Shown: positions 42,434 through 53,688 of the stretch, piece after piece
How positions within the stretch are numbered: the first letter of the stretch is position 1
How the letters are laid out: each line of letters opens with the position of its first letter
NCBI GenBank assembly: GCA_944372445.1
Contig: CALVZE010000003.1
Span: 67,816-121,503 of the forward strand
Direction of reading: 5' to 3'
DNA length: 53,688 nucleotides
Source of the DNA: an uncultured Clostridia bacterium
GTDB lineage: Bacteria; Bacillota; Clostridia; Christensenellales; UBA1242
The notes under the pieces: generated by a model
What the model was told of the DNA's origin: nothing
What the model saw: the letters and a program-made list of their open reading frames with translations, nothing else
Database searches by the model: none
Made by a program: the position numbers and the translations under genes

Positions 42434-42828
42434 CTATTCCTCACACGCTTCAATAACAATAGCATGACAAACACCAGGAATACTTTCTCCTTGTTGTGTA
42501 GAGGTGGTGCTGAGCAATGCACCTGTTGGCATAAAGAGAACTCTTTTATACTGTCCGTCTTGTAATTTTTTCATGATGTAAGAATTAAACACAGTCGCCG
42601 AGCAACCACACCCTGATGCACCGCATAGTGTATTTTGGTCGCGCCTAAAATACATCTGCCCGCAATCACCATAATTCAATCCAAGTTTTACGCCTTTGTC
42701 CTCCATAAGGTCGACAAGTATTTCACTGCCAAGCTTGCCCAAATCGCCCGTTGCAATAAGGTCATAGTCATCTGGTGTTGTTTTAGAATTTTCAAAGTGT
42801 GCAAGCATAGTTTCAGCACAACTAGGTG
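42434..42828 (-). pseudogene. spoVAD: 3' fragment of spoVAD, interrupted by an integrative element
   Basis: YDLIATGDLGKLG, DCG, GASGCGCSA, TGALLS, QGESIPG..HA are SpoVAD C-terminal motifs; similarity starts abruptly at P-S-C-A-E-T (normally ...GAAMAPAA.DT), with AT-rich non-homologous DNA upstream. Confidence 0.92.
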
Positions 42829-42918
42829 GGATTGTCAAGTATGGACCATAAAATTTTTAAAAAAATATAAATTTATAACCAAATTAACATAAAATAGCCA
42901 CTTTTTATTCCAAAATGA

Positions 42919-44571
42919 CTATTTTATGCAGTTTTCGTCTAAATACATATTTATCTTTTCAAACTCATCTTTGAAATTGAATTTTACTTCAATATGCTTG
43001 TTTTCATATATCAAAATTCTCTCGATGAGTTCATTTGCCATCTCTTTTGTAAGAGATGTAAAACCTTTGTATTTAGCAAAAGTGGTTATAAATTTATTAT
43101 TCTCAAATTCGACATTTTTATTTATATTACTACAAATCGCAATCAATTGATTTTCAAGCAAGTTTATCTTTTGCGTGGCAATATCTCTCTGTTTAAGATA
43201 ATCATTCTCAGTTATCTCCCCTGACTTAAACTTTATATACAAGACAGTTAGGCTATCTTTAAGAGATTTGAGTTCGTTATCTAATTTTATATGCTCTTTC
43301 TCAATGTTGCTACTTACATTTGATTTTTTTAAATTTATTATTTGGATTATATGTTGTATGTTAACTGAAATATCAATATATTTTTTTACAATATCAAAAA
43401 CAAGTTTTTCTAATACATCATTTCTAATCGAGTGTTTTGTGCAAACTTTACCTTTTGTCATCATATATGTTGGACATCTATAATAATACTTTCCTAGTAA
43501 ACTTTTTTCATTACAAATGCAAGTTTGAAGCACTTTCCCACAATCACCACATCTTACAAGTCCACCTAATATATATGTTCGAAAAGGTTTAATATATTTT
43601 GTTCTATTATTTTCTAATCTAAATTGCACTTTATCAAAATCTTCTCTTGAAATGATTGCTTCGTGTGTGTTTGGAACTATACACCATTCTTCACTTGATT
43701 TCTTTATGATTTTATGATTTCGATAACTTATTGTTCCTCTTGTCCCTTGCACCATATCTCCAACATACATTCTATTAGATAATATCCTTTGAACAGCTGA
43801 CGCAGTCCAAATATGGTATTTACTTTGATGTGGATTTTTATATTTATATCCTTTTGATTTTTTATATTCAAATGGAGTTAATATTTCATTGTCATTCAAG
43901 AATTTTGCAATCGCGCTTAAACTACTGCCATTTAAGAACATTTTATAAATAATTTTAACAACTTGGCTTGCCTCAACATCTATAACAAGTTTATGCCTAT
44001 CTTCTTTACTTTTTTCATATCCATAACAAGCAAAAGAACCTATAAATAAACCTTGTCTCATATAGGATTTTTGAGCAGTCTTTACTTTGATAGATAAATC
44101 TCTAACATATTCGTCATTCATTATATTTTTAAAAGGCACCAATAGTCCATTTACTGAGTTTGGGTCAAGAAAGGTATCTACATTATCTAATAGAGAAATA
44201 AATCTAACCTTTAAAATAGGAAAGATGACTTCTATATAATTGCTACTTTCTATTGTGTTTCTGCCAAATCGTGACAAATCCTTTACAATAACACAATCAA
44301 TGTCCCCTGTCTTAATCTTGGCAAGCATTCTTTGAAAATCAGGTCTATCAAAATTTGTTCCAGAATATCCTTCATCTATATAAAAATCATCAATTTGAAT
44401 ATCGGGATTTTGTGCGACAAATTTATTTAGCAAGGCTCTTTGCGATGAAATACTATCACTTTCGTTTTTAACTACATCGTCTTCTCTTGAAAGTCTTAAA
44501 TAAAGCCCTGCTTTCCAAATTTTTTCTTCTTGTATTTTTGCAAGATTGTTGTATCTACTAACTCGGCTCAT
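42919..44571 (-). CDS. Large serine recombinase
   Basis: YLRLSRED catalytic Ser, DEGYSGTNFDRP, VKDLSRFGRN, recombinase domain, CGDCG zinc ribbon, coiled coil. Confidence 0.95.
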   Translation of the reverse strand: MSRVSRYNNLAKIQEEKIWKAGLYLRLSREDDVVKNESDSISSQRALLNKFVAQNPDIQIDDFYIDEGYSGTNFDRPDFQRMLAKIKTGDIDCVIVKDLSRFGRNTIESSNYIEVIFPILKVRFISLLDNVDTFLDPNSVNGLLVPFKNIMNDEYVRDLSIKVKTAQKSYMRQGLFIGSFACYGYEKSKEDRHKLVIDVEASQVVKIIYKMFLNGSSLSAIAKFLNDNEILTPFEYKKSKGYKYKNPHQSKYHIWTASAVQRILSNRMYVGDMVQGTRGTISYRNHKIIKKSSEEWCIVPNTHEAIISREDFDKVQFRLENNRTKYIKPFRTYILGGLVRCGDCGKVLQTCICNEKSLLGKYYYRCPTYMMTKGKVCTKHSIRNDVLEKLVFDIVKKYIDISVNIQHIIQIINLKKSNVSSNIEKEHIKLDNELKSLKDSLTVLYIKFKSGEITENDYLKQRDIATQKINLLENQLIAICSNINKNVEFENNKFITTFAKYKGFTSLTKEMANELIERILIYENKHIEVKFNFKDEFEKINMYLDENCIK

Positions 44572-44578
44572 ATCTCAC

Positions 44579-46276
44579 CTACATAGATAAGGCAATTTGT
44601 GCCTGTTGATATTTTTTCTCTTGTATATATACTTGCCTGTTCAGTTCAATATATTGAAGAGCGTTCATATATTCATCTCTAAATTTAACTTCCACTTCAA
44701 TCTTGCCACCCTCGTATATATAAATATTATTAATAAGCTCGACAACAACATCTCTTGTTAGTTCTGTTATGTTTTGATATTTTTTAAAGTTTTCAATAAA
44801 CCTATTTTCAGTCGTTAGTCCATTTTTTATCGCTTCTTTTTGTAATATCAAATTTTCAATAGCACTTAAAATCTCTTCTTTCTTCTGTGAGTATTTGTCT
44901 TTCATAGAAAGATACATATCCTGCGTGATAAATCCTTTTTTCCAATCTGGATACAAATCTTCAAGCAGTCTATTTATATCATCTCTTTCTGCATATTTCG
45001 ATTTTAACATCTTATCAATTTTTGCCGTCTCTTTTGTCCGTTCTTCACTTCTATTTATGAAATCAATAAGGCTATCCATCGTTATTGCAATATTTACATA
45101 CTGCTTTATCACAGCAAAAACCGCTTCCTTGATTTTATCAACTTGAACTGCGTGTTTTGTGCACGCTTTGCGTCCAGATTTTTTAAAAGTGCTACAAATA
45201 TAATAGTAATACTCTTTGTAAGGCTGATGAATATGCTTTTTATTCATACCCCGCCTACAATCTCCACACTTGCAAAAACCTGACAATAAGTCTAATTGTT
45301 TGGTGCTTGTGCAAACTCTTGTATCTCTTGCAAGTAATGATTGCACTTTTTCAAAATCTTCTCTTGAAATAATAGGTTCGTGCGTGTTTGGCACAATTAT
45401 TCGTTTGTCTTTATCAACTTTTCGGCAAATTTTAACTTTATAACTAACTATCTCTGCTTGCTTTTGCACCATATCTCCAACATACATTTGATTTGTTAAG
45501 ATACGTTTTATTCCAAGTGAGTCCCATTTAGGGTTTCCAGTTGTAGAAAAATGTCTATCTTTATATCCTTTACTTCTTTTATATTCACTTGGAGTTAAAT
45601 AATTATTGTCATTCATATAAATTGCTATTGAACGAATTGTGGCGCCTTCTAAAAACATTTTATATATCATTCTTACATTATCAGCAGCCTCTTCATCAAC
45701 AATGAGTTTATGCTTATCATTTGGGTCTTTAATATATCCATAGCAAGCAAATGAACCTATATATTGCCCATTTTCTCTTTTAATCGTAAGAGAACTTCTA
45801 ATCTTCATAGAAATATCACGACAATATTCATCATTGAGCAAGTTTTTAAAAGGAACTATTACATTATTTATAGACTGCGGATTTAAAAAACTATCTATTT
45901 GGTCATTTATAGCAATAAATCTCACTTTCAACATTGGAAAAACGATTTCGATATACTTACTTGTTTCAATATGATTTCTTCCAAGTCTTGATAAGTCTTT
46001 TACAATAACACAATCAACCTTATTCGCTCTTATGTCATTAAACATTCTTTCAAAACTATCACGATTAAAATTTGTGCCAGTATAACCATCGTCTATATAC
46101 TCGTCATAAAGTTTAAGGTCTGGGTTTTTCAACAAAAAATTACGCAACATCTCTCTTTGAGATTTTACGCTCTCACTTTCCATTTTATCACCGTCTTCAC
46201 GAGATAAACGTATATACAAAGCAGTATTCCAAATTTTACCGCTTACTTTATTTTCAAAAACATTTTCCATAAGCAT
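44579..46276 (-). CDS. Large serine recombinase
   Basis: YIRLSRED, DDGYTGTNFNR, VKDLSRLGRN, THEPIIS, CGDC zinc ribbon. Confidence 0.95.
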   Translation of the reverse strand: MLMENVFENKVSGKIWNTALYIRLSREDGDKMESESVKSQREMLRNFLLKNPDLKLYDEYIDDGYTGTNFNRDSFERMFNDIRANKVDCVIVKDLSRLGRNHIETSKYIEIVFPMLKVRFIAINDQIDSFLNPQSINNVIVPFKNLLNDEYCRDISMKIRSSLTIKRENGQYIGSFACYGYIKDPNDKHKLIVDEEAADNVRMIYKMFLEGATIRSIAIYMNDNNYLTPSEYKRSKGYKDRHFSTTGNPKWDSLGIKRILTNQMYVGDMVQKQAEIVSYKVKICRKVDKDKRIIVPNTHEPIISREDFEKVQSLLARDTRVCTSTKQLDLLSGFCKCGDCRRGMNKKHIHQPYKEYYYYICSTFKKSGRKACTKHAVQVDKIKEAVFAVIKQYVNIAITMDSLIDFINRSEERTKETAKIDKMLKSKYAERDDINRLLEDLYPDWKKGFITQDMYLSMKDKYSQKKEEILSAIENLILQKEAIKNGLTTENRFIENFKKYQNITELTRDVVVELINNIYIYEGGKIEVEVKFRDEYMNALQYIELNRQVYIQEKKYQQAQIALSM

Positions 46277-46377
46277 ATCTCCTCATAATAAAATTGAGAT
46301 GATATGCCGTGAATATCTAATACGATATTATTATAACACATCATCTCAAAAATATACAGTGATTTTTAAAATTTATC

Positions 46378-46659
46378 TTAATTTCCTATCTTTGCAAGTA
46401 AAATTTTTTCCATTTTATCTTGAAAACTCTTATTTGTGTCAGCAAATTTTACTTTAACAACCAAATCACCAACCTTAAAAAGATAGGGATTTTTTATCTT
46501 TTCAATAAAGTCAATTAACTTTTCGTGTTTACTTTTTGATGTGTCGATATTTATATCTCTAATATCAACCAAACTATTTGTATTACAAGTTTTAAAATCT
46601 TGATTTTTCATTTCATTTAATTCATTTAATGTTATCATACTCAAATTTTTGACATACAA
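46378..46659 (-). CDS. Small recombinase-associated protein (DUF6870-like)
   Basis: LVDIRDINID...IKNPYLFKVGD.VVKVKF, as recalled for small genes preceding clostridial serine recombinase clusters. Confidence 0.7.
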   Translation of the reverse strand: MYVKNLSMITLNELNEMKNQDFKTCNTNSLVDIRDINIDTSKSKHEKLIDFIEKIKNPYLFKVGDLVVKVKFADTNKSFQDKMEKILLAKIGN

Positions 46660-46719
46660 AATTTTTTTTATTCCAAAAAGAATTATCGAAATAAAAAGAA
46701 TTATGTCAAATCCTCCCCA

Positions 46720-47115
46720 TCATAGTTCACTTGCTTTTAAATTTTCTATATCATCTTTAATCTTTTCAGTTAAATCATAAACAAGACTTTCTAAATCACC
46801 ATCTGTGACGTTGGCAAGATTGTTATAACCATCTAACTTGTAAATATCATCACTGTAAGTATCTGCTACAAAACAGCGAACTCTATCCACTCCATCTTTT
46901 GCAGCAGCTTTAAGCCAATAATCTACATCATCATCGTCTAATATATCCGAAATTTCTCTTATATCATCATAGTAATCTGTGCTATGTTCTGCGTCAAAAT
47001 CCTCTATAAGATTCTTTATGTTCTCAAAAACATCTTTCTTGCATTTAGTATCTATATCTTTTACTTCTTCTTTCAATAAATTTATTAATTTCTTTCTTGC
47101 GTATATTTCATTCAT
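46720..47115 (-). CDS. Acidic hypothetical protein
   Basis: AAGGAG RBS; DGYNNL.N motif; ends SEL. Confidence 0.7.
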   Translation of the reverse strand: MNEIYARKKLINLLKEEVKDIDTKCKKDVFENIKNLIEDFDAEHSTDYYDDIREISDILDDDDVDYWLKAAAKDGVDRVRCFVADTYSDDIYKLDGYNNLANVTDGDLESLVYDLTEKIKDDIENLKASEL

Positions 47116-48208
47116 TATTGTCTCCTTTTAGATAAGGTATCAATCTTTCTGCCACTCTTTTTATCATAAGTGGTGGGACACTCATTCCACACACATAGGC
47201 AATATTATCTAAACTCTCCGACAGAAAGTTAAAATCCTGTGGAAAGGTTGAAATTGACACAATATCTTGTTTAGATAAGAATTTTTTATCGCACCACCTT
47301 ATGTTATTACAATGGGCAGTTATTGTTGGTGCAACCTGATCGTCATAAACAAAGCAGTAATTAAAAAAAGAACTCTTGTTTCTAAGTTTTCTACAAGCGT
47401 TCTCTAAATTGCGATCTCCATATTTGGCATTATCTATAAGTTTTTTAAGATTATCTGTTATTCCTCTTTCGCTTCCATCTTTTGACTTAATTTTACTAAA
47501 TGTAATAGGTCTATAAAGAAAAGACATATTCAGTTTATTCAAATCGACATCTAAGCGTGTCGCAATAAAAAATACTCTATGTCTTTTCTGTGGTATTCCT
47601 ATTTGTTCACCTTTAAGAAGCCAATGTTTTACCTTGTATCCGATATTATGAAAATGTTTATAGATATTTTGAACATATCTCCAAGCATTTCCCTTTGTAA
47701 GTCCTTCGACATTTTCCATAACAACAAACTTTGGTTTAAGCTTTTTAACAGTTTCTATAAACACAAAAGACAAATCGTCTAACGTCTGTTCTTTTTGTCC
47801 TTCTCTAAATTTCTTTTTCTTCCCCCAAGTTTTTTCTCGCAAACCTGCCATTGAAAATGTAGTGCAAGGTGGACTTCCATCAAGTATATCTAACTCAAAC
47901 AATTCCTTTGGTAAATCTTTATTAGGAATTTTATTGAAATCTCGAATATCCATCACAAAGTTTAATTTAGGGTTATGGTTGGCAAGATATATCTCATTCA
48001 TTCGTTTGTCAATTTCAAGGCAACCAACAACATCATATCCTGCCAACTTATATCCCATAGTGGAGCCTCCTCCACAAGCAAATGTGCTAAATACTTTTAA
48101 CCCATTGTTTTTCGGATAATCTTTAAAATGCCAATACCAATCATTACTATCTTTTTCTTTATAACAATCAAAGTCACTACCAAGCATATCAAACATTGAT
48201 TGTTGCAT
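47108..48208 (-). CDS. DNA (cytosine-5) methyltransferase
   Basis: FACGGG, DGSPPC..FS, ENV, Q.R.RVF, FPQDF, GMSVPP. Confidence 0.93.
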   Translation of the reverse strand: MQQSMFDMLGSDFDCYKEKDSNDWYWHFKDYPKNNGLKVFSTFACGGGSTMGYKLAGYDVVGCLEIDKRMNEIYLANHNPKLNFVMDIRDFNKIPNKDLPKELFELDILDGSPPCTTFSMAGLREKTWGKKKKFREGQKEQTLDDLSFVFIETVKKLKPKFVVMENVEGLTKGNAWRYVQNIYKHFHNIGYKVKHWLLKGEQIGIPQKRHRVFFIATRLDVDLNKLNMSFLYRPITFSKIKSKDGSERGITDNLKKLIDNAKYGDRNLENACRKLRNKSSFFNYCFVYDDQVAPTITAHCNNIRWCDKKFLSKQDIVSISTFPQDFNFLSESLDNIAYVCGMSVPPLMIKRVAERLIPYLKGDNNE

Positions 48209-48218
48209 AGTAGTCCCC

Positions 48219-49184
48219 TTAACTCATTTCTTCTTCGTTAACTTTTTTCATCGCCCTTTTCACAATATTTTCTATGCAGGATTTAAAGTTTTCTTCATCT
48301 TTGACGAATGCTTCGTTTACATCTTTATAATCAACACTATTATAAGTAAGATATTTAATTTTGTTTTGTTTGAAAAATTTGATAACATCTTCCGTTGCTT
48401 TTTCGCCAGCTTCATCATTATCAAAAGCAGTGATATAAATTTTTTTCTTGTTTAACTCCAAATTTTTAAACTTAGATAAATTGCTCACACTCCCAAGTGC
48501 TATTGCATTAGCACCAACACTTTCTAAACTCAAACAATCAAACTCACCTTCGGTAATAAAACAAAATGGTTTATCATTATATAATGCTTCTTTGTTAAAA
48601 ATATCAGTATGATGACTTTTTGTTTTATAGTATCTCAACTCATTATTTGATGTATCTATGTTGCGTGCTGTAAACCCATTTTTTGAAATTGGGATTATAA
48701 TTGCTTTGAGAGTCTTATTGCCAAAATTAAACTCATTGTAGCCTAAATTAAATCTTTTTGCTGTTTTTTCATCAATTTTTCTACCTAAAAGATAATTTTT
48801 TGCACTTTTTTCTTTATCTAAATTTTTAGTCCAAATTTTATATGCCCTTGAATAATCTTTCTCTTTTTGATTGTTTTCTTTATTTTTTTCTTTTGTGAAC
48901 TCTTTTATTGTTCTTAAAGTTTGACCCATTTTATAATATTGCAATGCCCTTTTAAAAGCCTCTTTGTTATCAACATTTTCAAGTATTGCAATACAATCAA
49001 ACAAGTTATATGTTTCACCACAACCAAAACAATAAACTTTGTTATCATCATAATATTTCATTGAAGCATTGCTATCATTGTGATTGGGATTTATACATCG
49101 AAACATTCGACTTGTATTTATTCCGTGACTTTCAAGATAATTTCTTAAATTAGATTTGAGATACTCATATTCAATATCTTCCAC
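48219..49184 (-). CDS. DNA primase-like protein (zinc finger + TOPRIM)
   Basis: C.NP.H.D...CFGC; ITEGEFD..S; AFDNDEAG; KDVNE. Confidence 0.88.
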   Translation of the reverse strand: MEDIEYEYLKSNLRNYLESHGINTSRMFRCINPNHNDSNASMKYYDDNKVYCFGCGETYNLFDCIAILENVDNKEAFKRALQYYKMGQTLRTIKEFTKEKNKENNQKEKDYSRAYKIWTKNLDKEKSAKNYLLGRKIDEKTAKRFNLGYNEFNFGNKTLKAIIIPISKNGFTARNIDTSNNELRYYKTKSHHTDIFNKEALYNDKPFCFITEGEFDCLSLESVGANAIALGSVSNLSKFKNLELNKKKIYITAFDNDEAGEKATEDVIKFFKQNKIKYLTYNSVDYKDVNEAFVKDEENFKSCIENIVKRAMKKVNEEEMS

Positions 49185-49190
49185 AATAAT

Positions 49191-49511
49191 TTACATTTCC
49201 TCACTGCTTAATTTCTTGTATCTATCTTGAATATCATAGTAAATAAATTCTCTCAAATCATCTTGCGTCAAGTCATATTCTGTTTTCATAAATCTATAAT
49301 ACAAATCTTCTACAATTTCTTTTTTTGCAAAATCTCTTCTCATATAACTTTTGCCATAGTTTACAAGGAAATTATAAAATTCTTCGTGTGCGTGAATTTG
49401 ATAAAAACTTTCGTATAATTCTTCTGCTGGAAGTTTTTTCATTTGCATTTTATATTTTTCGTGTTCTCTATCAAGTTCTCTCACGAACTCTCTATACTCA
49501 TCTTCTAACAT
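49191..49511 (-). CDS. Hypothetical protein (DUF3848-like)
   Basis: GGAG RBS before ATG 49511; helical acidic protein ending SEEM; family call tentative. Confidence 0.65.
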   Translation of the reverse strand: MLEDEYREFVRELDREHEKYKMQMKKLPAEELYESFYQIHAHEEFYNFLVNYGKSYMRRDFAKKEIVEDLYYRFMKTEYDLTQDDLREFIYYDIQDRYKKLSSEEM

Positions 49512-49512
49512 A

Positions 49513-49884
49513 TTACATCTCCGAGTCATATTTTTTATTTTTAGATTTTCGGCTATTTGCTTTATATTCAGCTATCTCTTTCAAAATTCTTTGTGTGTTT
49601 TTATATTTCTCTTTGTTGTAATATTCTTGCTTTTTGATATATTTATCTAAATCCTTCATATCCTTTTTTTCAAGTTTATACTTAATGCCACAATCACAAG
49701 AGATAAATTGCAATCCGCAAGCGGGACAGCGCTCAATATCGCACATATCTAAATGTTTTTCTCCAACGTGAACACCGCAATCTCCACAAGTTGGGTTTTC
49801 TTCATCTCCTACCCAATCTTCGTCCTCATCACCAAATAGTATTGGATCATAAAGTTTGCCTTTAATCAAGTATTTTACCGACAT
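49513..49884 (-). CDS. Cys-rich zinc-binding hypothetical protein
   Basis: CGDCGV...H..CD.ERCPACG.QFISCDC; ends DSEM. Confidence 0.8.
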   Translation of the reverse strand: MSVKYLIKGKLYDPILFGDEDEDWVGDEENPTCGDCGVHVGEKHLDMCDIERCPACGLQFISCDCGIKYKLEKKDMKDLDKYIKKQEYYNKEKYKNTQRILKEIAEYKANSRKSKNKKYDSEM

Positions 49885-49893
49885 AATTTCCTC

Positions 49894-50667
49894 CTACATT
49901 TCTTCATCACACTGATTATATTCATAAGCATGGGTTTTCTTATTAAAAGAATAATATCTTTTAGAATCAGGCCAAAGTTCAAAACCTTTTTCATAAGCTT
50001 CTTTGCTGCCTTCATCAAAAATGAGTTCTTTTGTGCAATCACCATTTTCAAACTCATATTCACCACAAAGAACACAAATTTGTTCTTCAGCAAATTCATA
50101 TTCAAATAAGTTTTGTGGAAACATAGAAGATAATTTCAGCATAAGTTCTGGAACAGGACTCCAAGCTGTGTCAAATAAAATTACATTATCTTCTATTTCT
50201 GTTTCGTGTGCATTCCACTTGGTCCCCCAATTTCGAATACTCCAATCATACCAATCCACTACACCATAATTTAAAATGTTATCTAGTGCCATTTTGCCAT
50301 AATTCAAAACTGATTGTTCGTTCTCAAATCTTTTCTTTCCTTTCCAATCTTTTTCTTCTGCAATTTCTTTTAATTTCTCTTTAAATTCATCGTCTTTCAT
50401 TCCGATATAATTTTCACCAATTGAAACAATAATCGATATATATTTTTTAAACTCATCTGTCTTTTTTATTGAGTTCATAAAAAGATTTATATATGTTGGA
50501 ACTCGTGAAGAAGATTCCATTTTCGCTATACTTTCTGGCATAGGCGTGATTTTGTTAAAATCCAAAACCACTTTATGTTCTTCGTTGTCAAATGTTGTGA
50601 TTTGATGTAGAACTTCTTTATATTGTGGACCTCGAATTGTTAAACGATTTCTTACCCAATTTGGCAT
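49894..50667 (-). CDS. DUF1281/YubB/Api92-like ferredoxin-fold protein
   Basis: MPNWVRN.L, LDFNKI.PMP, WYDW...NWGTKWNA, FDTAWSP; ends DEEM. Confidence 0.8.
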   Translation of the reverse strand: MPNWVRNRLTIRGPQYKEVLHQITTFDNEEHKVVLDFNKITPMPESIAKMESSSRVPTYINLFMNSIKKTDEFKKYISIIVSIGENYIGMKDDEFKEKLKEIAEEKDWKGKKRFENEQSVLNYGKMALDNILNYGVVDWYDWSIRNWGTKWNAHETEIEDNVILFDTAWSPVPELMLKLSSMFPQNLFEYEFAEEQICVLCGEYEFENGDCTKELIFDEGSKEAYEKGFELWPDSKRYYSFNKKTHAYEYNQCDEEM

Positions 50668-50676
50668 AATTCCCTC

Positions 50677-51198
50677 CTACATTTCTTCTTGTGCTTGTCG
50701 CTTCTTCTCTGCTTGTAATGTTGCTTCTGTCCAAAATCCGTAAAAATCTTTTGGTCGTTTTATCCCTAATTGCTTATATTCTTTATCTAACCCTTTTTGC
50801 ACTTCTTTGAAATCATCAAATGGATATTCAGCATATATCCATTTGTCTTTATCGTTAAATATATAGATATACTCAATCCAACCCCATTTTTTAAGTTCTT
50901 TTAAAGAACAGATACTTGCTTCTTGGTCAGTTTCTCCCCTATCTCTTCCATAAGCAACCACAACATCATCTTGTCTTTGACTATAATCAAATGAATGTGG
51001 TTTACTTGGATCTGGATTAACCTTTTCACATAGACAAGAAATATTTCCAAGATTTAAAAGTTCTTCAATCTTTTTTCTATCTTTATAATGGTCAATAAGC
51101 ATTGCGCCATTATAGGTTAAATAACCATCACTATGACAATAAATTGCTTTATATTTATCGTCACCAATCTTTTCACAAATCAAACTTCTTGTTGACAT
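50677..51198 (-). CDS. Conserved phage/ICE hypothetical protein
   Basis: MSTRS.I...IYCHSDGY....G..L..HY, AYGRDRGE, EYIYIF; ends QEEM. Confidence 0.8.
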   Translation of the reverse strand: MSTRSLICEKIGDDKYKAIYCHSDGYLTYNGAMLIDHYKDRKKIEELLNLGNISCLCEKVNPDPSKPHSFDYSQRQDDVVVAYGRDRGETDQEASICSLKELKKWGWIEYIYIFNDKDKWIYAEYPFDDFKEVQKGLDKEYKQLGIKRPKDFYGFWTEATLQAEKKRQAQEEM

Positions 51199-51207
51199 AA
51201 ATCCCCC

Positions 51208-52104
51208 CTAAATTAAGCTATATTTTCCTGCATATAAATTCCACGGTTCTGTATTTAGATAATAATCTAATAACTCTTGATAAACATAAATTGACTCCAA
51301 GTTAGGACATCTTGAAAATGGTTGATAAGAAGTAGTAAAATTTGCTGACACCTCATTCTTTGATAGGAATGTCACCTGTTTTAAGTTATCACAACCATTA
51401 AATGTGCCAAGAGTCATCTTTTTTAGACTTGATGATAACTCAACTTCTTCAAGATTTTTGCAATTAAAAAAAGCATAAGGGTCTATTTGTTCGACTGTGC
51501 TAGGCAAAATTAGCGACTTTATATTTGTTCCCCAAAATGCACTGTCGCCTATTCTTTTAAGTCCCTCACTAAATTCTATTATTTCTAAATTTGAACAATC
51601 TCTAAAAGCAAACAGTTCTATTGTTTCTATTGTTTTTGGTAAAATGACTTGTTTTATTTTTTTATTGTTTTGAAAAACACTATTTGAAATACTTGTTATT
51701 TTTACATCTCTTCCTTCAATAAAAGTAGGTGTATCTATTGAGTATTCATAAGTCCAAGGATATAATTGATTATATATCATTTCATAAAAATCATAATATC
51801 CATTAGCACCAGTGGTATAATGTTCTTGTAAAAATTGAAAAGCCTCTGCTCTATCATTAAATGTAATAATTCCACTATAATTTTCAGTATCACCAAATGA
51901 ATATGAACTTGGAATTTCTACTATTTCTTTATCACCATTATACTCAACTATTTTGCTTCCATTAAATACAAATCCTTCTACGGATATTAATGGCTCTTGT
52001 TTTTCAAAACTAACTCTTTGGGTAAGTGCAAATATAAAAAGAATTAAAACTCCAATAATTAAAAACAAAACTCCCCAAGATATTGTTGATTTGCTTTTAC
52101 TCAT
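51208..52104 (-). CDS. Membrane-anchored BspA-type leucine-rich repeat protein
   Basis: N-terminal TM segment; repeats LPKTIETIELFAFRDCSNL and LPSTVEQIDPYAFFNCKNL. Confidence 0.88.
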   Translation of the reverse strand: MSKSKSTISWGVLFLIIGVLILFIFALTQRVSFEKQEPLISVEGFVFNGSKIVEYNGDKEIVEIPSSYSFGDTENYSGIITFNDRAEAFQFLQEHYTTGANGYYDFYEMIYNQLYPWTYEYSIDTPTFIEGRDVKITSISNSVFQNNKKIKQVILPKTIETIELFAFRDCSNLEIIEFSEGLKRIGDSAFWGTNIKSLILPSTVEQIDPYAFFNCKNLEEVELSSSLKKMTLGTFNGCDNLKQVTFLSKNEVSANFTTSYQPFSRCPNLESIYVYQELLDYYLNTEPWNLYAGKYSLI

Positions 52105-52697
52105 AAGTAGTTTTCTTCCTGTTTAAGCAATGTGTCAAACAAAAAATCATAACTATGTTCACTTCGTTCCTTCATTTCACCAATCATTTCTTTTAAAGTA
52201 GTAAATTCAAATACACCCATACATTCTATGAGTTCATCATTTTGGTCTGTAATATCAAAAGCATAGTATTGTGGAATACCACGAAGCCATCTATCATATT
52301 CTTCAACTTCTGTTTCAATTAAAGCGCGACAAGTATCATAACTTCCAATATCATCTGCCATATTGTGTTCTCTTAATGTTTCTTTTAAAATATAAGCATA
52401 TCCAACTTGTCCACTATCCCAATGATCGTGAAAATCGTGCACTGACATCGCTAGTCCAGAATGGTCAAGAAGATAAAGTGGCATAATACAAGCCACTTTA
52501 TCTTTATTTTTGTTATACCATTCATTAAACTCGCTTGGAGTTTTGAAATTATGTTTGTCGCCTAGTTGATATCTTCTATGAAAACAAATCATTTTCGACA
52601 TATTTGTATCTTTATAATATTCTCTTGGATCCTCAATATCATCTTCAAAAACTGTTAAAGTCAAACCTTTCCTTTTAATTGACATTCTGTTTTCCAT
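52101..52697 (-). CDS. Conserved phage/ICE hypothetical protein
   Basis: EDPRE, CFHRRYQLGD, PLYLLDHSGL, WDSGQVG, YD.WLRG; GGAG RBS before ATG 52697. Confidence 0.8.
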   Translation of the reverse strand: MENRMSIKRKGLTLTVFEDDIEDPREYYKDTNMSKMICFHRRYQLGDKHNFKTPSEFNEWYNKNKDKVACIMPLYLLDHSGLAMSVHDFHDHWDSGQVGYAYILKETLREHNMADDIGSYDTCRALIETEVEEYDRWLRGIPQYYAFDITDQNDELIECMGVFEFTTLKEMIGEMKERSEHSYDFLFDTLLKQEENYL

Positions 52698-52698
52698 A

Positions 52699-53127
52699 TC
52701 ACATCTCCGAGATAGATTTATTAAGATATTTTTCGCTTTTCTTATACATTTTTGGAACCAATTGAAAGTAATCTCTATATAAATCGGCTTCTTTTGGCAA
52801 TTCAAAGGTCTTTATATATCTTCTACAAATTTTTATTTGGTCGTCAGTTAGACTTATATTATCTCCCGTATCGGAATCATATCCCACCATATAGCAAGTG
52901 CCTTTAACACAATCTCCAGTGCCTGCTATCCAAATATTGCCCGGTTCGTGATTTAACATTGCTTCATCGTTTGCGTAGATATCAATATCATCTGTCCCCG
53001 GCATTTCAATAAGTTCAATATGTCCCCCAACAATCTTTTGAAATGTTTCCAATGTATCATCTATTTCTTCAATAGTTGGCTCTTTCCCGGGTTCTTTAAT
53101 TAACACTCTTATTTTGTCCTTGTTCAT
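52699..53127 (-). CDS. DUF3846-like protein
   Basis: VLIKEPGKEP, LETFQKIVGGHIE, ANDEA, SLTDDQI; ends ISEM. Confidence 0.8.
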   Translation of the reverse strand: MNKDKIRVLIKEPGKEPTIEEIDDTLETFQKIVGGHIELIEMPGTDDIDIYANDEAMLNHEPGNIWIAGTGDCVKGTCYMVGYDSDTGDNISLTDDQIKICRRYIKTFELPKEADLYRDYFQLVPKMYKKSEKYLNKSISEM

Positions 53128-53350
53128 TTGTTTTCCTCCAATTCAGAAAATCTTTGTATTTCATAAGTTCCCAATTACTTGAATAAAAAGCTTGCTGTAT
53201 TGATACAGCTAAAATTGGTCTGATTTCTTTTTTTTCATCATAATTCTTTAAATCATCTCTAATTGCTCTAAGTTTATCAAGCAAATCTTTCTTTGAAGAA
53301 TAGTCTATATCTTGCAAAACAAACGCAAGTTCTCCACCAATATTTAACAT
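53096..53350 (-). CDS. Hypothetical protein
   Basis: GGAG RBS before ATG 53350; fills the gap in a coupled gene array. Confidence 0.6.
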   Translation of the reverse strand: MLNIGGELAFVLQDIDYSSKKDLLDKLRAIRDDLKNYDEKKEIRPILAVSIQQAFYSSNWELMKYKDFLNWRKTNEQGQNKSVN

Positions 53351-53351
53351 A

Positions 53352-53688
53352 TTACTCCACCTCACTTTCGTTTGTCTTTTTCTTGTTCTTTGCAGTTCTT
53401 TTGGGTTTTTCATTTTCTTCAACCTTCACTTCTACCGCGACTTTTTCTTTAACTTCTTCTTTTGTTTCAGTCTTTTCTTTCGCAAGATTTCTTACTGCAT
53501 ATTCGACAGAATTTTCAACATTTGCAATTATTTGCTTTGAAGCTGAGCGTATTTTCTGCAAGTTCGACTTAAACAAATTCAAATCTTCATCAGACCAGTT
53601 TTGAATTTCATCAAAATTAAATTCTGGCAAATCAAGTCCAAGTTTTGAGTTTACGGCATAAATGGTTCCGGCAATTTCAATATCTCGG
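53352..53688 (-). CDS. Hypothetical protein, 5' truncated by the window
   Basis: Frame open from the window edge (RDIEIAGTIYAVNSKLGLDLPEF...); K/E-rich tail ending SEVE. Confidence 0.7.
   Translation of the reverse strand, partial: RDIEIAGTIYAVNSKLGLDLPEFNFDEIQNWSDEDLNLFKSNLQKIRSASKQIIANVENSVEYAVRNLAKEKTETKEEVKEKVAVEVKVEENEKPKRTAKNKKKTNESEVE

Follow-up and report, generated by a model that had tools for sequence, protein, structure and literature searches.

A Glu-Met tail on unrelated proteins of a conjugative element from Clostridia, a candidate signal for type IV secretion

To our knowledge, the choice of protein substrates by Gram-positive conjugation machines is essentially unknown. The DNA analyzed here (the window, a stretch of 53,688 nt from an uncultured Clostridia bacterium) contains part of a mobile element in which several unrelated proteins terminate in nearly the same residues. 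Why should they share an ending? An earlier note on this sequence had described the ending as an (S/E)-E-M motif and had suggested a translocation or degradation tag on early anti-defence and establishment proteins.

Proteins which carry the tail

Eight genes in the window carry the tail, and 14 carrier families are found across 80 related loci. The carriers in the window are the following:

50677..51198, minus strand: 173-aa orphan protein (family 0); tail ..KKRQAQEEM, last five codons 50680-50694
49894..50667, minus strand: Api92-like / DUF1281_C protein, 257 aa (Pfam); tail ..NQCDEEM, codons 49897-49911
49513..49884, minus strand: Cys-rich 123-aa protein (family 8); tail ..RKSKNKKYDSEM, codons 49516-49530
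49191..49511, minus strand: DUF3848-like 106-aa protein (Pfam; family 32); tail ..KKLSSEEM, codons 49194-49208
52699..53127, minus strand: DUF3846 protein, 142 aa (Pfam); tail ..LNKSISEM, codons 52702-52716
48219..49184, minus strand: Zn-ribbon/Toprim primase, 321 aa (Pfam; family 22); tail ..VNEEEMS, with Met second-to-last, codons 48222-48239
52101..52697, minus strand: 198-aa orphan (family 3); tail ..KQEENYL, last codon TTA inside an ATGA overlap with the next gene
46720..47115, minus strand: 131-aa acidic orphan (family 29); tail ..NLKASEL, a Leu variant

Other genes of the element in the window are:

44579..46270, minus strand: large serine recombinase 1 (Pfam); end ..QAQIALSM, a doubtful member
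42919..44571, minus strand: large serine recombinase 2 (Pfam), a non-carrier; end ..DENCIK; it marks the end of the element beside a split spoVAD
47108..48208, minus strand: C-5 cytosine methyltransferase (Pfam), a non-carrier; end ..KGDNNE
51208..52104, minus strand: BspA-type LRR protein with an N-terminal membrane segment (Pfam), a non-carrier; end ..KYSLI
53352..53687, minus strand: C-terminal part of a protein of about 329 aa (family 2), in a gene cut by the contig end; end ..NESEVE, a non-carrier here
53096-53350: 84-aa gene, missed by the earlier note; end ..KSVN

The C-termini which the earlier note had quoted are all present (KASEL at 46720, NEEEMS at 48219, SSEEM at 49191, YDSEM at 49513, CDEEM at 49894, AQEEM at 50677, SISEM at 52699 and ESEVE at 53352), as are the basic patches which precede some of them (KKRQAQ, RKSKNKK and KNKKK). 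Its definition of the motif has to be amended: The constant part of the tail is the C-terminal Met (or Leu), mostly preceded by Glu and never by Lys or Arg. A stretch rich in Lys and Arg, approximately 6–12 residues from the end, is followed by 3–5 residues free of them (often Asp/Glu, Ser or Ala), usually a Glu, and the terminal Met with its free carboxylate. Some lineages tolerate 1–3 additional residues.

This layout is found in a profile of 162 non-redundant tails. Lys and Arg make up 30–36% of the residues at -12..-6, compared with 11–16% in controls (25–36% over the wider range -14..-6), and 0–4% at -4..-1. Glu has maxima at -2, where it is found in 54% of the tails, and at -4, where Asp or Glu is found in 39%. 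The mean net charge changes from +0.8 at -16..-7 to -0.85 at -6..-1.

The terminal Met is retained while the length and sequence of the tail vary widely among homologues. For example, family 0 ends in Met in 88 of its 120 best homologues, and in 49 of 78 from related loci. Among the 120 best homologues of the Api92-like protein, 53 end in Met and 47 in Glu (mostly ..ME), and a Met is found within the last three residues in 111. In related loci, Met ends 25 of 27 Cys-rich proteins, across many different downstream junctions, and 23 of 31 DUF3846 proteins. It ends 5 of 12 DUF3848-like proteins, the remainder being ..EEMS or ..EEML, and 8 of 17 Toprim primases, the remainder being ..EME, ..EMC or ..EMS. 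The 198-aa orphan ends in Leu because its ATGA overlap rules out Met; in its family of 37 members, 20 end in Met and 16 in Leu. The family of the 131-aa orphan has 14 members, six ending in Met and four in Leu, and sister loci have ..KQEEM or ..KQSEM at the equivalent place. Family 2 ends in Met in 7/38 cases.

Distribution in the genome and in related loci

The earlier note had proposed a tabulation of last residues in the element and its relatives against the chromosome. Our gene set, obtained with an ORF-based gene finder made for this analysis, contains 958 genes in an assembly of 1.12 Mb. EM endings are found in 5/15 element genes of the window and in 7/943 genes in the rest of the genome, and Met endings in 6/15 and 21/943 (one-sided Fisher test, p = 3.4e-7 for EM and 1.2e-6 for Met). 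At least three of the seven outside genes sit in other mobile elements: Two encode tyrosine integrases of such elements (C14, C20), and a third has a homologue in a related locus (L058). As the note had observed, no backbone gene in the window ends in EM (0/40), and tig and hslV both terminate in ..VEEL; a single backbone gene ends in Met (1/40, thioredoxin, ..QSLM).

The remainder of the same element, 32 genes on contig C2, comprises the type IV secretion (T4SS) module, the relaxase and large surface proteins. It includes the coupling protein (T4CP), VirB4, the T4SS pilin and the MobL relaxase; TrbL has been found in related loci only. None of these 32 genes ends in Met.

Met is the commonest last residue in the 80 related loci (296 of 1324 genes, 22%), with 294/1238 on the operon strand and 2/86 on the other strand. 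All these loci were gathered through family 0, so a single group of elements has been sampled. Met endings are frequent in the MobL relaxase (12/22, plus six with ..KMG), the tyrosine integrase (15/23, ..EM), the NrS-1-type primase-polymerase (11/15), the pentapeptide protein (14/22) and the Api92-like protein (16/29). They are rare or absent in the machine parts of the T4SS (VirB4 1/54, TrbL 0/21, T4CP 0/20, pilin 2/16), and in DUF3852 (1/20), the N6 methylase (0/13), the RHH protein (0/23), the cytosine methyltransferase (0/25) and the LRR protein (0/25); these carrier and non-carrier sets were drawn from the same data, and their choice leaves only comparisons within a class unaffected. Not every protein useful in a recipient has the tail, since it is missing from the soluble methylases, the RHH accessory protein and the regulators. 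Different families of one locus tend to agree in their class of tail (0.571, compared with 0.449 +/- 0.016 after shuffling); no shuffle in 2000 reaches the observed value, a count which is not a probability because the loci are related.

The statement that the LRR protein, the methyltransferase and the recombinases lack the tail is thus correct only for the first two. One of the two serine recombinases ends in ..LSM, in a family where only 2/11 members end in Met, and the tyrosine integrases of sister elements carry the tail. In large databases this integrase ends in Met in 116/120 cases, all at least 68% identical. The relaxase, which the note had singled out as a check, gives a divided answer: It carries the tail in sister elements, but this element's own relaxase terminates in ..EEGVISESL, without the EM extension. 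Among full-length cluster representatives of the relaxase, Met ends 23 of the 52 closest and none of the 61 more distant ones. Where present, the tail is an add-on of 8–14 residues past the conserved ..EEG[VI]I.. end.

Tails, gene junctions and composition

Could the tail be a by-product of base composition or of the junctions between genes? An AT-rich element, rich in Glu and Lys, might have several EM ends by accident: Glu accounts for 7.8% of residues, and genome-wide the proteins end most often in E or K. Nevertheless, Met makes up only 2.2% of residues, ends 2.2% of the proteins encoded outside the element, and is conserved across hundreds of homologues. With the enrichment in this genome and in the 80 loci, an origin by chance is refuted, and we regard it as extremely improbable. 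The junctions deserve more attention. According to this explanation the final ATG and the codons for Glu would be nucleotide-level features (overlap with a ribosome binding site, termination-reinitiation, or strings left by cassette shuffling), and the peptide would have no role. In fact, the final codons TCG GAG ATG at 49513 and 52699 contain a GGAG, 7 nt before the next ATG, which doubles as the ribosome binding site of the next gene. Two pairs of junctions in the window have nearly identical DNA strings (49524-49509 with 52710-52695, and 50688-50665 with 49905-49882). Terminal Met is commonest at gaps of 6–12 nt (122/241) and rare at overlaps (23/326); at ATGA overlaps the rarity follows from the genetic code, because the third base of the last codon is fixed as A. 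Coupled junctions are mildly enriched in GAG (26/81, compared with 18% in gene bodies). Given the peak at 6–12 nt and the mild enrichment in GAG, the tail may have a secondary translational role at some junctions.

As an explanation of the tail itself, the junctions largely fail, as the earlier note had argued from the separate ribosome binding sites which we also find after the stop codon at 49894 and 50677 (AGGAGG) and at 48219 (AAGGGGA). With gaps of 0–25 nt, 152/201 genes in carrier families end in Met, but 0/185 in equally coupled non-carrier families. Carriers without tight coupling keep the Met: 27/51 with gaps above 40 nt, 5/14 at convergent junctions and 9/14 at locus ends. The tail also stays on operon-terminal integrases and relaxases followed by terminator-like hairpins, with ends ..DFEM, ..DMEM or ..GLKM. 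The distance from the terminal ATG to the next start ranges from 1 to more than 1000 nt. Met may be replaced by Leu codons which are not start codons; when an ATGA overlap leaves no room for Met, Leu ends 9/16 carriers compared with 8/31 non-carriers. The synonymous codons of Glu at -2 are both used (78 GAA and 30 GAG), and in uncoupled genes (23 and 4) in a proportion similar to that of gene bodies. We therefore consider it very unlikely that the tail is a junction feature without a peptide role. The comparison of these sequences indicates that the Glu-Met tail is a selected protein-level feature, common to unrelated proteins of the element.

A possible address for conjugative transfer

Several soluble proteins which are unrelated but encoded together with one T4SS have the tail at their very C-terminus. 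It is absent from the machine components, from membrane and secreted proteins, and from homologues in elements without a T4SS: Of four records of DUF3846 proteins from bona fide phages (three lineages, a small sample), none carries it, and 0/21 neighbouring coding sequences end in Met. A translocation tag would fit this pattern, in which the relaxases, integrases and primases of sister elements have the tail while machine parts, membrane proteins and methylases do not.

Known signals resemble the tail in part. Substrates of the Agrobacterium VirB/VirD4 system (VirE2, VirF and VirD2) reportedly have a positively charged C-terminal transport signal (Vergunst et al. 2005). In signals of this type, Arg residues are spaced over roughly the last 20 positions, whose net charge is positive. 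Both signals are short, unstructured or helical, located at the extreme C-terminus and provided with a basic cluster; both are found on unrelated proteins including relaxases (here those of sister elements), and a VirD4-type protein would be the reader here too. However, the tail is found with a monoderm conjugative T4SS, its motif is far crisper, and it closes with four acidic or neutral residues, of which Met is the last, the basic residues being 6–12 from the end. Its charge profile does not agree with a positive-charge signal. The E-block of Legionella Dot/Icm substrates is a Glu-rich C-terminal signal, with a hydrophobic residue near the end, which is read by DotM of the coupling complex. 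It also places acidic and hydrophobic residues near the C-terminus of many unrelated substrates of one T4SS, but it lies approximately 10–17 residues from the end, where our tails are rich in Lys and Arg, their Glu being at -2 and -4. Dot/Icm is moreover a type IVB system by which a diderm pathogen exports effectors, while the tail is found in a conjugative element of gut Clostridia.

The Sog and TraC primases are transferred in conjugation. More generally, Gram-negative conjugative T4SSs of F-type, IncN and IncP co-transfer many plasmid proteins, partly by means of C-terminal signals; the cargo of pED208 includes ParA, ParB, SSB, PsiB, PsiA and others (PMC8406263, PMC11288057). There too, establishment and maintenance proteins, primases among them, ride with the DNA, and C-terminal segments can hold the signal. 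These tested systems are all Gram-negative, and their signals are heterogeneous (positive, hydrophobic or internal) and without a consensus, unlike the single ending shared here by at least 12 families. We know of no T4SS signal with a terminal Glu-Met: The known C-terminal ones are positive, hydrophobic, or rich in Glu farther from the end. A literature search found no printed description of such a tail, and the accessible parts of a 2025 review of T4SSs and of papers on protein transfer by the F plasmid give no consensus signal for monoderm systems.

The same data, a selected tail on DNA-processing proteins, could also correspond to a handle with a use other than export. It might be a degradation or unfolding tag for a host AAA+ protease, which would keep establishment proteins short-lived, or a peptide by which the proteins dock to a shared hub, for example a relaxosome scaffold, the host SSB, the clamp or a chaperone of the element. 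The carriers are all soluble and could need a timed removal. In an AlphaFold2 model of the family 0 protein (pLDDT 95.5), the tail is predicted to close the helix 158-172, rather than to form a floppy linker. ClpX recognizes short C-terminal motifs (..LAA in ssrA, ..RRKKAI in MuA) with non-polar residues at the last two or three positions. The tail is likewise short and ends in a hydrophobic residue with a free carboxylate, and the MuA signal resembles it in having basic residues ahead and in belonging to a DNA-transposition protein. Nevertheless, acidic residues near the C-terminus block the recognition of ssrA-type tags by ClpX, and Glu at -2 with Asp or Glu at -4 is the opposite of what ClpX tolerates, so a degron of the ssrA or MuA type does not agree with the tail. 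Host proteases are common to all the elements in a cell, yet the endings follow the element family and not the host, and phage homologues in similar hosts have no tail. Export accounts better for the presence on relaxases and the confinement to T4SS elements. A non-export handle, for degradation or docking, is thus less likely than translocation but keeps an appreciable probability. The anti-defence role proposed in the earlier note is conjectural for every carrier.

On balance we favour, by a modest degree, the reading of the tail as a C-terminal recognition signal for the T4SS of the element; the reader protein and the transfer itself we infer. The label would be put on soluble proteins whose place of action is the DNA being transferred or the cell that receives it: the relaxase, the integrase, primases, the pentapeptide-repeat protein, DUF3846, the Api92-like protein and several orphans. 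It would be read by the substrate receptor of the Gram-positive T4SS, either the coupling protein of VirD4 type or an adaptor which binds to that protein, and the receptor would hand the labelled proteins to the recipient along with the single-stranded DNA. As they would travel with the DNA, they would be on hand before the genes of the element are expressed in that cell. Leu would stand in where Met is not encodable. Element families differ in their endings (-EM here, -MEL and -ER elsewhere), which would prevent co-resident elements from loading one another's cargo.

A tail so easily read from the sequence, common to relaxases, integrases, primases and about a dozen families of orphans, would open the question of substrate choice to direct tests. 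From it one could predict the orphan leading-region proteins which work in the recipient, and it would offer a handle to study or block establishment when genes are transferred among gut Clostridia. A broader proposal, to which we give somewhat less than an even chance, is that monoderm conjugative elements mark a whole transferome with a C-terminal postcode, at least ten proteins (relaxase, integrase, primases and probable anti-defence proteins) being sent with the DNA. In that case, the sequence of any Gram-positive conjugative element could reveal which proteins it injects. The dialects -EM, -MEL and -ER would co-evolve with the coupling protein and keep co-resident elements orthogonal. Other endings are indeed found in other elements. 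An ICE-like region of Vescimonas has ..DMEL, ..EIEL or ..SEEL in 4/17 coding sequences, and a T4SS element whose VirB4 and T4CP each show approximately 25% identity has ..ER in 6/18 genes, including DUF3846 and a primase.

The conjugative element and its surroundings

One end of a conjugative element takes up the final 10.8 kb of the window (42919-53688, minus strand). The end of the window is also the end of its contig, and the remainder of the element is found at the end of contig C2 of the same genome. This second part contains a LexA-like repressor, a sigma/HTH pair, a MobL relaxase, a VirD4-type coupling protein, a 1488-aa surface protein, a pilin and VirB4, with very large proteins further upstream. 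The genes in the window are the following.

Genes of the element in the window (all on the minus strand)
42919-46276, two large serine recombinases in tandem
DUF6870 protein
131-aa orphan
C-5 methylase
Zn-ribbon/Toprim primase
DUF3848-like protein
Cys-rich protein
Api92-like (DUF1281_C) protein
50677-51198, 173-aa orphan (family 0)
BspA-type LRR protein
198-aa orphan
DUF3846 protein
84-aa orphan
protein of ~329 aa, last in the window, at the contig end (cut end only)

The element splits spoVAD. The C-terminal half of this gene (window 42434-42838, Pfam positions 202-329) adjoins the two recombinases, and its N-terminal half (C2:80352-81029, positions 3-229) lies ~45 kb before the end of contig C2, which gives the element a size of at least ~56 kb. 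It may be excised like other intervening elements of sporulation genes.

Two other features of this genome should be mentioned. An S24 peptidase LexA-like repressor, an HTH protein and a small sigma-70 region-4 protein (G000:C2:109887-111954; L081:3788-5852) are located just upstream of the relaxase and coupling protein genes, they are likely an SOS-linked regulatory module of the element. An ORF scan of contig C1 also detects one open reading frame 12,714 codons long (G000:C1:27255-65399, minus strand), weakly similar to the Listeria-Bacteroides-repeat surface proteins of related elements.

Terminal methionine in the element and its relatives

An earlier note on this DNA had proposed that unrelated proteins of the element share a C-terminal (S/E)-E-M tag. 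The eight C-termini it quoted are all correct when read from the sequence, and so are the ribosome binding sites it placed at the tail junctions. We have called 958 genes in the 1.12-Mb assembly with our own ad hoc ORF-based finder, which uses codon log-odds and an SD score; C-terminus calls depend only on the chosen frame. Database homologues of the three families we have searched have the same kind of ending. In the element part of the window, 6/15 genes end in Met and 5/15 in Glu-Met; in the rest of the genome, 21/943 and 7/943 (Fisher one-sided, p = 1.2e-6 and 3.4e-7). At least 3 of the 7 Glu-Met cases elsewhere in the genome are mobile-element genes, including two tyrosine integrases (..KKDFEM and ..EEDMEM). 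None of the 40 backbone genes in the window ends in Glu-Met, as had been claimed, and both tig and hslV end in ..VEEL. No terminal Met is found in the 32 element genes on contig C2.

Family 0, whose tail is ..KKRQAQEEM, gives 665 hits at E ≤ 0.001. The terminal Met is kept in 88 of its 120 best homologues, despite tails of varied length and sequence: ..QEGEM, ..QDTEM, ..EPTVLM, ..SEAVM, ..NMEQM. The AF2 model of this protein (pLDDT 95.5, pTM 0.90) places the tail at the end of a predicted C-terminal helix, residues 158-172. It has no match in the PDB with E ≤ 0.001 (Foldseek), and the protein has no Pfam family.

Genes were then called in 80 related loci, each taken with flanks of up to 10 kb. 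Met is the commonest last residue (296/1324 genes): it is found in 294/1238 genes on the operon strand vs 2/86 on the other strand.

The relaxase of the element itself does not carry the tail, it ends in ..EEGVISESL. A search with it gave 150 cluster representatives, 113 of them full length: terminal Met is found in 23 of the 52 closest (22 with Glu-Met) and in none of the 61 more distant. In these carriers, the tail is an extension of 8-14 residues beyond the conserved ..EEG[VI]I.. end, so it looks like a module which has been gained and lost. No match to the relaxase is found among PLSDB plasmids (tblastn, E ≤ 1e-10), thus our search has brought up no model plasmid from a cultured organism. 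For one tyrosine integrase of this genome, the 120 best homologues end in Met in 116 cases and in Glu-Met in 114; with identities to the query of 68% or more throughout, they are not independent cases.

We have compared 162 non-redundant Met-ending tails of carrier families, in which a terminal Met is frequent, with members of non-carrier families. Lys/Arg amounts to 30-36% at positions -12 to -6 vs 11-16% in the controls, and is nearly excluded (0-4%) at -4 to -1. Asp/Glu is found in 39% of the tails at -4, Glu in 54% at -2. Some lineages keep Met and replace Glu (..EVVM, ..QAYM, ..PHCM), others have one to three residues beyond Met (..EME, ..EMS, ..EMG, ..EMEAS). The primase in the window, ..EEEMS, is of this last kind. 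Among 120 homologues of the Api92-like protein, 53 end in Met and 47 in Glu (mostly ..ME), with a Met within the last three residues in 111.

Protein families and gene junctions

In the 80 loci, terminal Met is commonest when the next start lies 6-12 nt past the stop (122/241) and rare at gene overlaps (23/326), which at first sight favours a junction effect. This impression was dropped after clustering the proteins (single-linkage BLASTP): the trait goes with protein families.

Terminal Met in protein families of the 80 loci (both sets are drawn from these same data, so the overall frequencies are circular; comparisons across junction classes are not)
Carrier families
Family 0: 49/78
194-aa orphan: 20/37, and 16 with Leu
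DUF3846: 23/31
Api92-like: 16/29
Cys-rich protein: 25/27
Tyrosine integrase: 15/23
MobL relaxase: 12/22, and 6 with ..KMG
Pentapeptide-repeat protein: 14/22
Toprim primase: 8/17
NrS-1-type primase-polymerase: 11/15
Two small families: 6/6 each
Non-carrier families
VirB4: 1/54
TrbL: 0/21
Coupling protein: 0/20
Pilin: 2/16
DUF3852: 1/20
LRR protein: 0/25
Both methylases: 0/25 and 0/13
RHH protein: 0/23
DUF3991-Toprim: 0/17
Several further orphans

Non-carrier genes are packed as tightly as carrier genes. With gaps of 0-25 nt, Met ends 152/201 carrier-family genes vs 0/185 non-carrier-family genes. Carriers also keep it with more than 40 nt to the next gene (27/51, and 7 with Leu), before a convergent gene (5/14) or at the end of a locus, with no next gene (9/14). 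Integrases and many relaxases close their operons, with terminator-like hairpins behind them, and still end in ..DFEM, ..DMEM, ..PIEM or ..GLKM. ATGA overlaps force an A at the end of the last codon, which makes Met impossible: Leu is found there in 9/16 carriers vs 8/31 non-carriers, and ..EENYL (TTA-TGA) in the window is a case of this type. Both Glu codons precede the Met (GAA 78, GAG 30). Uncoupled genes have 23 GAA and 4 GAG, near the 18% GAG of gene bodies; at coupled junctions, where the next start is close behind the stop, GAG rises to 26/81, and overlap with the ribosome binding site explains that part. As an explanation of the tail, we consider an artefact of the junctions alone very improbable and largely excluded.

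Other candidates have been rejected. Recoding of the stop codon, or read-through in frame into the next gene, does not fit: each of the three stop codons is found behind the Met, and only at some junctions is the downstream start in frame. The terminal ATG is not a fixed-distance part of the next initiation region: the distance varies.

Two pairs of near-identical junction strings are found on the minus strand of the window: 49524-49509 with 52710-52695 (16 nt) and 50688-50665 with 49905-49882 (24 nt), each with one difference. They belong to unrelated gene pairs and run from the tail codons over the stop and the ribosome binding site to the next start. Cassette shuffling by recombination at such joints could account for them, or the same combination of tail and ribosome binding site may simply have arisen by convergence.

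Other elements, phages and the possible role of the tail

True phages have DUF3846 proteins as well (Faecalibacterium phage FP_oengus, Bacillus phages 035JT001 and 055SW001, Ruminococcus phage NatCom_23091). The ends of these proteins are ..EDNAK, ..WGYDA, ..WRYDA and ..IVIRD, and none of the 21 CDS read around them has a terminal Met. Seven PLSDB records match DUF3846, all typed as non-mobilizable. Of the two we have read, C. perfringens pJFP838A has no tail (0/22 CDS), and the other is the Vescimonas region described next. Other conjugative elements have endings of their own. An ICE-like region of another type in Vescimonas has an -EL variant in 4/17 CDS: DUF3849 and a protein annotated as MutS (both ..DMEL), an ArdA-annotated protein containing DUF3846 (..EIEL) and MobC (..SEEL). 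In MT835766, whose VirB4 and coupling protein are only about 25% identical to those of this element family, 6/18 genes end in ..ER (..SYER, ..SFER, ..DMER, ..EQER, ..DAER, ..DMER), DUF3846 and a primase among them. Within the 80 loci, agreement in tail class between families of the same locus is 0.571 vs 0.449 ± 0.016 when shuffled; 0/2000 shuffles reach the observed value, a description and not a probability, since the loci are related to one another.

The carriers form a coherent set, which includes the relaxase, an obligatory T4SS substrate. The primases and the integrase are enzymes which the incoming single strand requires while none of its genes can yet be expressed, and small soluble proteins of the leading-region kind are also among the carriers. 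Machine parts, membrane and surface proteins, regulators and methylases have no tail. This coherent set, the element-specific endings and the phages without tails fit a C-terminal recognition signal for the T4SS of the element itself, the reading towards which we lean, with some reserve. The earlier note had also considered degradation. A handle for a protease or another hub is a less probable reading, though one of some weight: it accounts less well for endings which go with the element and not with the host. Residues 100-720 of the coupling protein, modelled in complex with the 54 C-terminal residues of family 0, gave a score of 0.00, which speaks neither for nor against binding. Two unannotated proteins of 467 and 172 aa, encoded beside VirB4, are candidate adaptors.

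C-terminal T4SS signals are of a known kind. Passages in two papers (PMC8406263, PMC11288057) describe co-transfer of many plasmid proteins by Gram-negative conjugation systems, with signals, either C-terminal or internal, which have no consensus. We have found no description of a Glu-Met-COOH tail common to a dozen families in conjugative elements of monoderms in the main texts of the openly accessible literature, and no such signal appears in the parts of a 2025 review reached by term searches. A literature search for DUF3846 gave one cyanophage paper, unrelated.

Some of these records deserve a comment. MT835766.1 (L093) and MT835596.1 (L091), from human faeces, are deposited as "UNVERIFIED: Bacteriophage sp.". 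They contain T4SS genes (VirB4, coupling protein, TrbL, DUF3852, DUF7768) and are fragments of conjugative elements, not phages. The ArdA-annotated protein of Vescimonas fastidiosa pMM35_01 (L088, 627426-629198) has 590 aa, matches DUF3846 and ends in ..KGEIEL; its neighbours are annotated as DUF3849, topoisomerase 3 and a "transposon-transfer assisting" protein.
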